Assembly (NCBI GenBank): GCA_044892525.1
Contig: CM097885.1
Span: 21,144,001-21,208,000, forward strand
DNA from: Schmidtea polychroa
Taxonomy: Eukaryota
DNA: 64,000 bases
Direction of reading: 5' to 3'
Part shown: positions 6,101 to 9,100 of the stretch, piece after piece
How the letters are laid out: each line of letters begins with the position of its first letter
Position numbering within the stretch: the first letter of the stretch is position 1
Notes under the pieces: generated by a model
What the model was told of the DNA's origin: nothing
Seen by the model: only the letters and a program-made list of their open reading frames with translations
The model's database searches: none
Position numbers and translations under genes: made by a program

Positions 6101-9100
6101 TGATTGTCTGAGTAAGGTTTCTGAAACAGCTTCTCAACTATCCAATGTTAAAGTAAGCTTAGTTGGAAAAAGTTATTTAAAATTAATTCTTAGGACATTT
6201 ATGTTATTGGAAATCGAATTCCTGGTTACAAGTCCGTCGAAGATTTAATGACAGACTCTGGGAATATGAGTCCCATTGGTCAAGTAGAATTGAATTTAGA
6301 TGAAGATCTGGCAGTTTTACCTTACTCTAGTGGAACCTCTGGACTTCCTAAAGGAGTAATGCTTACACATTCAAATTTTGTTTCGCTTAATAAGCAACTG
6401 GAGTAATAAATTGATAAATATTCATTTATCTTGATTAATATATTAAGAATGTCTCACGAATCAAAAGAAAGTGATTCATATATGTTAATGCTTCCAATGT
6501 ATCATGTGTATGGAATGATATGCATTCCCAACTTTCTATTTGGCATTGGCTTGCCTTGTATAGTTCAACCAAAATTTGATCCGATAAAAATGCTGATGGC
6601 AATTGAAAAGTATAAGGTAATGAATGTTTATATTATTACTATTAAGCAAAGGCGTCTTTAGAAATTTGTCGCCACTGTGCTATAAACTATAATGCGCCCC
6701 TAAAAAACAATTTTTACAAAAATATATTATGTTTATTAATAATATTACACATTATTGTATATAGATATATTAATATTATATATTACATGACTACGACACT
6801 ATTTGTTTGATTATTTTCAACCAGTGGCCTCTCTTGGGAAATTTTTTAAATTATTCATAATTTTTTTTGTAATATCATAAATTATATTTGAAAGTGCAAA
6901 TTTTATCAAATTTATGGCTTTTATAAAATTTACGGCGCCCCTTCACTCACGGTACCCTCTGTGCTTAGCACAGTTAGCACAATGGAAGAGACGGCGCTGC
7001 TATTAAGTATTATTAATTATGATTATTGAAAAGTGAGGAGCACAACCAAAGCTAAATAGTCGAAGATATAAAGTATTGCATAATTTATCATGGGGCCTTT
7101 CATAATTCTACATCATTACACAGCCACTTTATACGGTTATGTCATAATGTAGCCTGTGACTTCAATATGCTCATTCATATTCTACTAAAAAATAATTTTT
7201 TTGAAAAAATAAAGAGTTGCCGATCCTAAGATTTGAACCCAGTTACTAAAATGACATCAATGAGTGTGATAATCACTGAGCTACTAGACACATATAAAAC
7301 ATCATTTTATTGGGTTAATCAACTTCTTGATAAAATCTTTCTAGCTTTAATTGTAAGCTTCAAACTGCCATATTCATTTTATTAATAAAAAGGGCAAATG
7401 TTTCATTTGTTCAGCAATAGTCGGTTTCAATAAAGTTTTTAATAAAACGGACATTCCTGAAACACATGAAACTACAACGAGATCTCGATTAAAAATGCTG
7501 CTACTTCATAACTAAAAGCAACGTAACCGTTGATTATAAATCTCTTTTAGTCAATCTTACCATTACGGCTGCTAAATTATCATTATTTACAAATTCAGCC
7601 ATTTATGAACAGGTTTTATCTTTTCTGTCCATAAAATAGATGGTAAAATAAATAGAATGATCAACAAAATAATCCTTTTTGTTTATCTGTTTAGTTAAAC
7701 TTTAACACGAACTCAAAATCATTTTTAAAATAAACTAAATCAGTAGATGGATTGGGCACCGCTGGCACAGGGCACCGCTAGCACAGTACCCCCCTCCCCC
7801 CGGTCGTAAAATTTTTTAAAAATTCTAAGTCTAAAAGTACATTTTTTTCAAGGTCAAATTTAAACAAAGACATATGACTCATCAAGGTCATTGAAACAAA
7901 GACCATGACTCATCCGATGACTCATCAAATTTCTCAAGGTCATTTAAACAAAGACCATGACTCATCCTATGACTCACCAAGGTCATTTTCAAGGCCATAT
8001 GACTCATAATATGACTCATAAAGGTGAAAAAAATTTTCAATGTCATTTAAACAAAGGACATGACACATCAAGGTCATTTTCAAGGTCATCTGAGTCATCC
8101 TATGAGTCATCAAGGTCATTTTCAAGGTAATATGACTCATCCGACGAGTCAATAAAATTTTCAAGGTCATTTAAACAAAGACCATGACTCATTCAAGGTT
8201 ATTCTCAAGGTCATATGACTCGTCCGATGAGTCATAAAAATTTTCAAGGTCATTTAAACAAAGACCGTGACTCATTCAAGGTCATTCTCAAGGTCGTGTG
8301 ACTCATCCAAGTTCATTTTCAAGGTCATATGACTCATACTATGACTCGTCAAAATTTTTCAAGGTCATTTTCAAGGTCATCTGAGTCATCCTATGACTCA
8401 TCAAGGTCATTTTCAAGGTCGCATGATTCATCCAAGGTCATTCCCAAGGTCATATGAGTCATCGCGATGAGTCATCAAGGTCATATTATTATTTTTAAAA
8501 AATATTTTTATTTTTATTATTATTTTTAAACAATATTATTATTTTATTTTTAATTTTTTCAAAGTTCCCGTCAACGAAAATTAATAATCGATAGCTCATT
8601 TTAAAGCTCAACCCAAGACCCTTCGAATGAGCTATATATCTTGTTATTATTATTATTATTATTATTATTATTATTATTATTATTATTATTATTATTATTA
8701 TTATTATTATTATTATTATTATTAATATAATATTATTATTATTATTATTATTATTATTATTATTATTATTATTATTATTATTATTATTATTATTATTATT
8801 AGTATTATTAGTATTAATCTATATACACCGAGTCTATCCGACAAAATATTTTGTCCCCCTATGGGTAATGCTCACAAGGGTACTGGTCACGCTCAACAAC
8901 TCACAAATCAACAAATCAACAAAACATACATTTATTTAAACAATAAAATAATGTAAAATTAACAAAGGTAAACTAAATATATATAGTATGATATTCATTA
9001 ATCAGTGTTGAACAGGCTTGACACTTGCGAACATTCTTCTCGTGACACTTAGAACAAACAATTACGTGACCACACGGTAAATACAAAACCGAAACTTGAT

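Follow-up and report, generated by a model that had tools for sequence, protein, structure and literature searches.

Dense arrays of two short words, one of AP-1 type and one of FTZ-F1/ERR type, occupy part of the terminal inverted repeats (TIRs) in a Polinton/Maverick element from Schmidtea polychroa. The window analyzed here, a 64,000-nucleotide stretch of contig CM097885.1, contains four such arrays: one in each TIR of a broken element (element 1), one in a reversed internal copy, and one in the TIR of a second element of the same family (element 2). This motif-array feature is real, and comparison of the arrays with one another suggests that they were probably selected. Regarding their role, we give slightly better than even chances to the reading that the arrays form a putative landing pad for host factors, selected because the element's transcription, and probably its replication, would benefit.

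A broken Polinton in a host gene intron

Element 1 (7742-34627, 26.9 kb) is a Polinton/Maverick. Among the defining features set out in the available text of 10.1101/2023.08.22.554363, we found TIRs in the 100-1500 bp range (here about 1-1.2 kb), a target site duplication (TSD) of 6 bp within the range of 5-8 bp, protein-primed DNA polymerase B (pPolB) together with an rve integrase, a protease and a packaging ATPase, and a double jelly-roll (DJR) capsid protein. The left TIR (7742-8980, plus strand, 1239 bp) starts with AGTAG and is an inverted match to the right TIR (33652-34627, minus strand, 976 bp), and the identical hexamer TAAATC flanks the element at 7736-7741 and 34628-34633 (both plus strand). 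The outermost segment of the left TIR (7742-7848, plus strand) is free of motifs, is identical to the right end at 105 of 107 positions and 91% identical to element 2, and is predicted to serve as the core origin and the integrase end.

Between the TIRs, pPolB is broken and split over two frames (10011-13373, minus strand; PF03175, E 3.5e-12, with homologues), followed on the same strand by an adenovirus-type protease (25001-25390; PF00770, E 3.4e-6) and an open 406-aa ORF for the DJR major capsid protein (25409-26629). The latter was recognized by structure modeling (pLDDT 85) and Foldseek, which matched it to the capsids of iridovirus, PBCV-1 and mavirus (best E 1.9e-17); a PDB sequence search with this ORF gave no match. 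The ORF at 26993-28060, without a Pfam match, is a minor capsid protein candidate. A broken rve integrase with an ATT tract (28009-29160, minus strand) matched PF00665 with E 5.9e-6, which is below the curated cut-off, and its chromodomain is in a separate frame (PF00385, E 2.4e-5). The remaining genes are an A32-type packaging ATPase (29562-30173, minus strand; PF04665, E 2.4e-7), a TBP-like gene in two frames (30246-30714, plus strand; PF00352, E 0.013 and 1.3e-8), and a weakly Bcl-2-like gene in two pieces (32597-33102, minus strand; PF00452, E 0.0058, below the curated cut-off). The element departs from a regular Polinton in several broken genes (polymerase, integrase, TBP-like and Bcl-2-like) and in a rearranged block of about 11 kb, which would account for its 26.9 kb as against the Polinton range of 13-25 kb.

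Several smaller features were observed along the element. A 44-bp repeat with GCTGCATGCTCACTGCAG flanks the polymerase gene, preceded each time by an ATT tract (9594-9760 and 14389-14431). AATAAA occurs at the inner TIR edges (8900-8980 and 33652-33730), on the same strand as the gene terminating at that edge, and is a possible shared polyadenylation signal, for which the probability of chance occurrence is high in AT-rich DNA. A RING-finger ORF (19422-19976, minus strand; PF13920, E 2.4e-9) looks IAP-type by eye, and what deletion has left of a second copy adjoins the left TIR (8974-9415). Together with the Bcl-2-like gene, it is possible anti-apoptotic cargo, which would suit a stress-activated element.

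The sequence-only reading had placed the element within a host gene, and this was borne out. Element 1 is held in a GT-AG intron (6617-37850, plus strand) of an AMP-binding (acyl-CoA-synthetase/4CL-like) gene, the exons of which join in frame as IEKYK-VAVLH (hyphen at the junction) with the PF00501 pieces in profile order. A second copy of the AMP-binding gene contributes an exon upstream of element 2 (61385-61618, plus strand; PF00501, E 2.6e-10). A single ORF at 46216-46869 consists of a cofilin domain fused to a proteasome-subunit fragment and is likely a chimeric retrocopy.

From this setting it might be supposed that the arrays are chiefly enhancers co-opted for acyl-CoA-synthetase-like host genes with element-bearing introns, as element 1 lies within a GT-AG intron with in-frame flanking exons and element 2 behind an exon of the second gene copy. 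We consider this very improbable. The arrays belong to the mobile unit, move with it and are present in every copy seen here, which means that they cannot exist for the sake of what they do to the host gene, and each array copy shows private decay. A gypsy-type LTR retrotransposon (reverse transcriptase, RNase H and integrase; 39631-45744) also sits between two exons of the gene that hosts element 1, which is therefore perhaps merely a tolerant landing place. Furthermore, planarian Polintons show enrichment in the B compartment (PMC10558129).

Two words recur in the arrays

We counted exact matches of the two words in each array. The left array (7845-8490, plus strand) contains 19 copies of TGA[CG]TCA, 14 of them within the 9-mer ATGA[CG]TCAT, together with 15 of TCAAGGTCA and 21 of the degenerate receptor word YCAAGGYCR. 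For the same three patterns, the right array (33990-34525, minus strand) gave 18, 14 and 19, and the internal copy (22766-23330, minus strand), which is reversed and has no terminus after it, gave 17, 14 and 19. The array of element 2 (62280-62685, plus strand), within a TIR (62175-63093, plus strand) whose element runs off the window, gave 14, 9 and 10. Each array thus has 24-40 AP-1 and receptor words together, and the four sum to 68 exact TGA[C/G]TCA and 69 PyCAAGGPyCPu matches, in agreement with the consensus sequences named in the sequence-only reading. In the rest of the window (61,027 bases outside the four arrays and three receptor-only stretches), we found three AP-1 words and no YCAAGGYCR. 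The coordinates given earlier proved correct, and exact counting confirmed the repetition of the left array in the right TIR, the internal copy and element 2. The earlier estimate of about twenty of each word holds for three arrays but not for element 2, with its 14 AP-1 and 10 YCAAGGYCR words.

TGA[C/G]TCA is the consensus of AP-1 (Jun/Fos). Identity as a CRE was ruled out, with none in the whole window. Classical dimeric hormone elements, in which two half-sites are arranged as IR3 (ERE) or IR1 (EcRE), were also ruled out, since the reversed half-site TGACCT is absent from every array. The TRE is listed as TGACTCA in the text available of PMC13513840, and the FTZ-F1 consensus is given as PyCAAGGPyCPu in that of PMC3630131. 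By sequence alone the receptor word suits NR5A, ERR and other AGGTCA readers alike.

A third word also recurs in the arrays, either as AACAAAG (3-6 per array, with six in the left array) or as the overlapping TAAACAAA (1-5 per array), which we take to be words of HMG-box and Forkhead type, respectively. It shares the register of the receptor slot, for example at 7860-7880 (CAAAGAC versus CAAGGTC), and may therefore derive from the receptor word. One variant breaks TAAACAAA yet leaves AACAAAG intact. The two main words and the third cover 52-59% of each array. The observed/expected CpG ratio is 0.38-0.53 in the arrays, whereas host DNA and the polymerase gene have 0.8-1.1; unit composition alone may explain this.

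In the comparison with shuffled controls that the earlier reading had proposed, the words are far in excess: 2000 dinucleotide shuffles per region gave at most three AP-1 and two receptor words, but this test is weak here because repeat amplification multiplies any word in the unit. We dropped it as evidence for function, since any repeat would pass. The chance that a random 31-bp unit contains both main words is about 1e-6 to 3e-6, uncorrected for the many motif pairs that could have been noticed.

Position, spacing and polarity of the words

The arrays sit 105-750 bp inside each element end, with the first receptor word 109-110 bp from the end. The earlier description of TIRs built from such arrays is right as to location; in extent, they fill only part of the left (7742-8980) and right (33652-34627) TIRs. 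The words had also been described as alternating, which does not agree with the frequent same-word pairs at a 12-bp period (26 AP-1/AP-1 and 29 receptor/receptor cases). Repeat units are 12-83 bp long and contain 9-bp palindromes. Spacer lengths are constant while spacer letters vary: AP-1 words are 5 or 6 nt apart in 30 of 31 cases, a receptor word is followed by an AP-1 word after 2 nt in 32 of 35 cases, an AP-1 word by a receptor word after 1-2 nt, and paired receptor words lie 4 nt apart. All receptor words are directed inward, away from the element end, and none in the opposite orientation was found across all arrays. In element 1 the genes that adjoin both TIRs read toward the element ends, so its arrays are not proximal promoters.

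A location just inside the ends, one strict polarity and constant spacers agree equally well with an alternative in which the words are sites for a protein encoded by the element (integrase, terminal protein-polymerase, packaging ATPase or core protein), so that their likeness to host motifs is partly a coincidence. Comparable sites would be the repeats that lie subterminally in cut-and-paste transposons or the packaging A-repeats of adenovirus; for the latter, the available text of PMC5033970 describes seven redundant repeats just inward of the ITR to which viral proteins bind. Two element ORFs have no assigned family, and atlas searches with them returned only sub-0.9 matches. We regard this alternative as unlikely, as it requires that two or three different words each fit a host consensus, down to the changes which that consensus tolerates. 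In addition, the Pfam scan of element ORFs (overlapping sets of 13 and 22) found neither a bZIP nor a nuclear-receptor zinc finger, the candidate DNA-binding domains of the right class.

The rearranged block of element 1 (about 14233-24900) bears on the same question. It is derived from TIR sequence and contains a second, internal element terminus (AGTAG...; 14471-14540, plus strand), for which neither a partner end nor a TSD was found within the window. Behind this terminus lies an array with eight TCAAGGTCA and no AP-1 word in units of about 20 bp (14520-15100, plus strand), and a second array of this kind has seven YCAAGGYCR and no AP-1 word in units of 18-19 bp (22400-22565, minus strand). 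The receptor word was therefore re-amplified without AP-1 in two further unit contexts. The rearranged block further comprises a large 7-kb fold-back with TIR fragments (15061-22139; arms 15061-16557 and 20706-22139), inner-TIR fragments at 17289, 18383, 20267 and 22166, the RING-finger ORF and the reversed full array. Receptor-only arrays in a mostly gene-less block favor a role in mobilization over pure transcription, and behind an internal terminus where the receptor word alone is amplified, a mobilization signal would be of more use than an enhancer. Such a role fits both sites for an element protein and the replication arm of the host-factor landing pad.

Word cores are conserved within variable repeats

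We then compared the four arrays slot by slot, using 170 word slots (82 AP-1 and 88 receptor), each entered once; two of the 82 AP-1 slots are false and raise the apparent variation of the cores. Variable cells made up 34/1020 (3.3%) in the core columns versus 41/198 (20.7%) in the spacers, although the comparison is partly circular, since the words had been picked out because they recur. The sequence-only reading had named words no more conserved than their spacers as the outcome that would count against it, and the opposite was found. Some spacer columns are equally invariant, such as the first two bases between receptor words (29/29).

More telling than the shuffles is the fate of variants after their origin. 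With a threshold of at least four copies, which was picked after inspection of the data, not one of the 20 kinds of variant seen in the 12 core columns had spread, versus 4/9 in the spacers (Fisher p 0.005) and 10/21 over all non-core columns (p 0.0005), all within four arrays of one family that share common ancestry. A spread variant was present in 9/13 non-core columns. Three spread variants lie within the words, namely C>G at the AP-1 center (20 copies), T>C at the first base of the receptor word (13) and A>G at its last base (7), and each is permitted by TGA[C/G]TCA or PyCAAGGPyCPu; the two at the receptor edges are transitions at the word margins. G-centered AP-1 words lie within AP-1 pairs in 20/20 cases, and 0/20 solo words are G-centered, a confinement that would also follow from quasi-palindrome template switching or from few ancestral events. 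The failure of core variants to spread is consistent with purifying selection on the words, which would have acted while the family was mobile.

The arrays are also a place of rapid turnover. Those in the two TIRs of element 1 are separated by 33 substitutions and by 8 gaps, which take up 161 columns, whereas the non-array parts of the TIRs differ at only 6/357 columns with no gaps, which indicates that the array units are reshuffled fast. Many other satellites are present inside element 1, and the array single strand folds more strongly than its shuffles (z -6.6; 0/20 shuffles as good). These observations, the different unit order in two TIRs with nearly identical flanks, and the confinement of G-centered words to pairs would all be expected of a neutral minisatellite shaped by slippage, unequal exchange and displaced-strand template switching, in which the ancestral unit held the words by chance. 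Nevertheless, such a process gives no account of why no core variant spread while 9/13 non-core columns carry one, of the fixed spacer lengths, or of the low prior of finding both words in a unit, and we therefore consider it quite unlikely.

Related loci in metagenomes

Scans for the grammar pattern of the arrays returned no matches in viral contigs and none in metagenome contigs; one of the patterns used on viral contigs has no exact match in the arrays of the window either, and its blank carries no weight. Searches of viral contigs with the capsid also yielded no relative. A metagenome search yielded 70 related loci, none with such an array. In 24 of them there was never more than one AP-1/CRE word or more than two half-sites per 500 bp; the remaining 46 are each shorter than 3 kb and have fewer than three. 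Blastn of the element TIR against the 70 loci gave no match. As none of these loci reaches a recognizable terminus or matches the TIR, they say nothing about the conservation of the array. The start of one locus (L017) was considered as an element terminus and dropped, because it reads by eye as a bacterial gene fragment.

These loci are informative on gene order. In 7/7 loci with a polymerase match (L002, L007, L008, L010, L021, L053 and L059), pPolB is on the strand opposite to the capsid gene, whereas both are on the minus strand in element 1. The polymerase block of element 1 may thus be inverted, and the native layout may put the polymerase downstream of the array, where it would read inward from the TIR. 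A TBP-like homologue occurs in 8/70 loci. In L059, a distant relative (27% capsid identity), the first 220 bases contain another kind of repeat array, in which ATGACAA and ACAAAGA are frequent and TGAGTCA occurs once.

Discussion

We propose the following working model for the arrays as a host-factor landing pad. AP-1-type and FTZ-F1/ERR-type words are kept intact within the variable-length repeats of both TIRs, where they would be bound, 105-750 bp inside the ends, by host bZIP dimers of Jun/Fos/ATF type and by a receptor of NR5A/ERR type acting as a monomer. The bound factors would enhance transcription of the element and would probably assist its end-primed replication, as origin helpers in the manner of baculovirus homologous regions (hrs). 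Repeat copy number would set the strength of the array, and the element would draw on stress and tissue signals of the host for the timing of its activity. The array may be idle in integrated copies that are silent, such as the broken element 1.

The baculovirus hrs are the best functional analogue by comparison. In the text available of PMC13513840, hrs are both enhancers and origins, with an enhancer strength that tracks the number of CRE plus TRE words. Like the arrays, they have variable unit numbers, lengths of 390-880 bp, words for host bZIP factors (CRE/TRE) and palindromes, and belong to a DNA virus. They differ in being dispersed over a circular genome, in their 30-bp EcoRI palindrome within units of about 70 bp, in their use of viral IE1 and in having mostly CRE words. 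The arrays instead lie in the TIRs of a linear integrating element and are TRE-rich with no CRE and with polarized receptor words. We rejected identification as a true baculovirus hr, given units of 12-83 bp, 9-bp palindromes and a TIR location as opposed to EcoRI-centered, dispersed repeats.

Adenovirus offers a second comparison. Oct-1 reportedly stimulates its replication. Like element 1, adenovirus has a protein-primed linear genome with a terminal segment of about 100 bp, followed by redundant repeats that bind host factors, among them the nuclear receptor COUP-TF (PMC5033970). Its seven A-repeats are at one end and outside the ITR, while the element has 24-40 words inside the TIR at both ends. 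The same text reports that COUP-TF and Oct-1 bind the packaging repeats without mattering for packaging, which calls for caution in inferring function from binding.

Binding by host factors could also act in the opposite direction, with an orphan receptor of COUP-TF/ERR/NR5A class damping AP-1 and the array setting silence as a repressor platform or latency keeper. A retroviral LTR is known to be repressed through an NR5A site, and at the sequence level the predictions of this reading are identical to those of the landing pad. The binding of COUP-TF to adenovirus subterminal repeats would also agree with it (PMC5033970). We nonetheless hold repression to be improbable, since about 19 perfect AP-1-type words are hard to square with a silencer, and piRNAs already silence planarian Polintons in the account available from PMC8532177.

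Parts of the host-factor landing pad have precedents in the literature, cited here from the text available for each paper. Nr5a2 binds SINE B1 (PMC11202083), so that a mobile element spreads an NR5A-type word there too; SINE B1 is a retroelement with a single site and demonstrated binding, whereas the arrays are dense and composite, belong to a virus-like DNA element and have predicted binding only. Flatworm FTZ-F1 binds the SF-1 element, and one consensus FTZ-F1 site was unbound in vivo (PMC8673669). Genes driven by JNK carry AP-1 motifs together with Ftz-F1 motifs (PMC4610234), and a Hydra Maverick clusters with Jun/Fos/creb in early regeneration (PMC13465017). Planarian Polintons, silenced by piRNA, are desilenced and gain H3K4me3 upon differentiation (PMC8532177). 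In planarian promoters, motif presence failed to predict regulation (PMC10558129), and virions of animal Polintons have not been observed so far (10.1101/2023.08.22.554363).

Full-text searches of a largely open-access set of papers returned no account of dense AP-1/receptor arrays in Polinton TIRs. The text available of PMC11414722 mentions only "additional putative" sites in repeats, including a C. elegans Polinton TIR, and its Fig. S6C is possibly relevant. Virus enhancers made of host-factor repeats are known already; what is new is their form and their place at Polinton ends.

The arrays bear on how, and in which cells, animal Polintons become active, and they name specific candidate host factors on a short, self-contained piece of DNA. 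Should the prediction hold, the TIRs of Polintons would correspond to the hrs of baculoviruses and the LTR enhancers of retroviruses, and through them dense modules that respond to stress could spread in a genome. A more specific version of the model, which we think rather doubtful, is that the arrays form a gate of AP-1 and NR5A/ERR inputs (perhaps with HMG/Forkhead), whose tuning depends on the number of repeats and which restricts transcription and end-primed replication to times of injury or to a single cell lineage. If this signal-integrator reading were true, autonomous copies and gene-less fold-back satellites would scatter ready-made injury enhancers through the genome of a regenerating animal.
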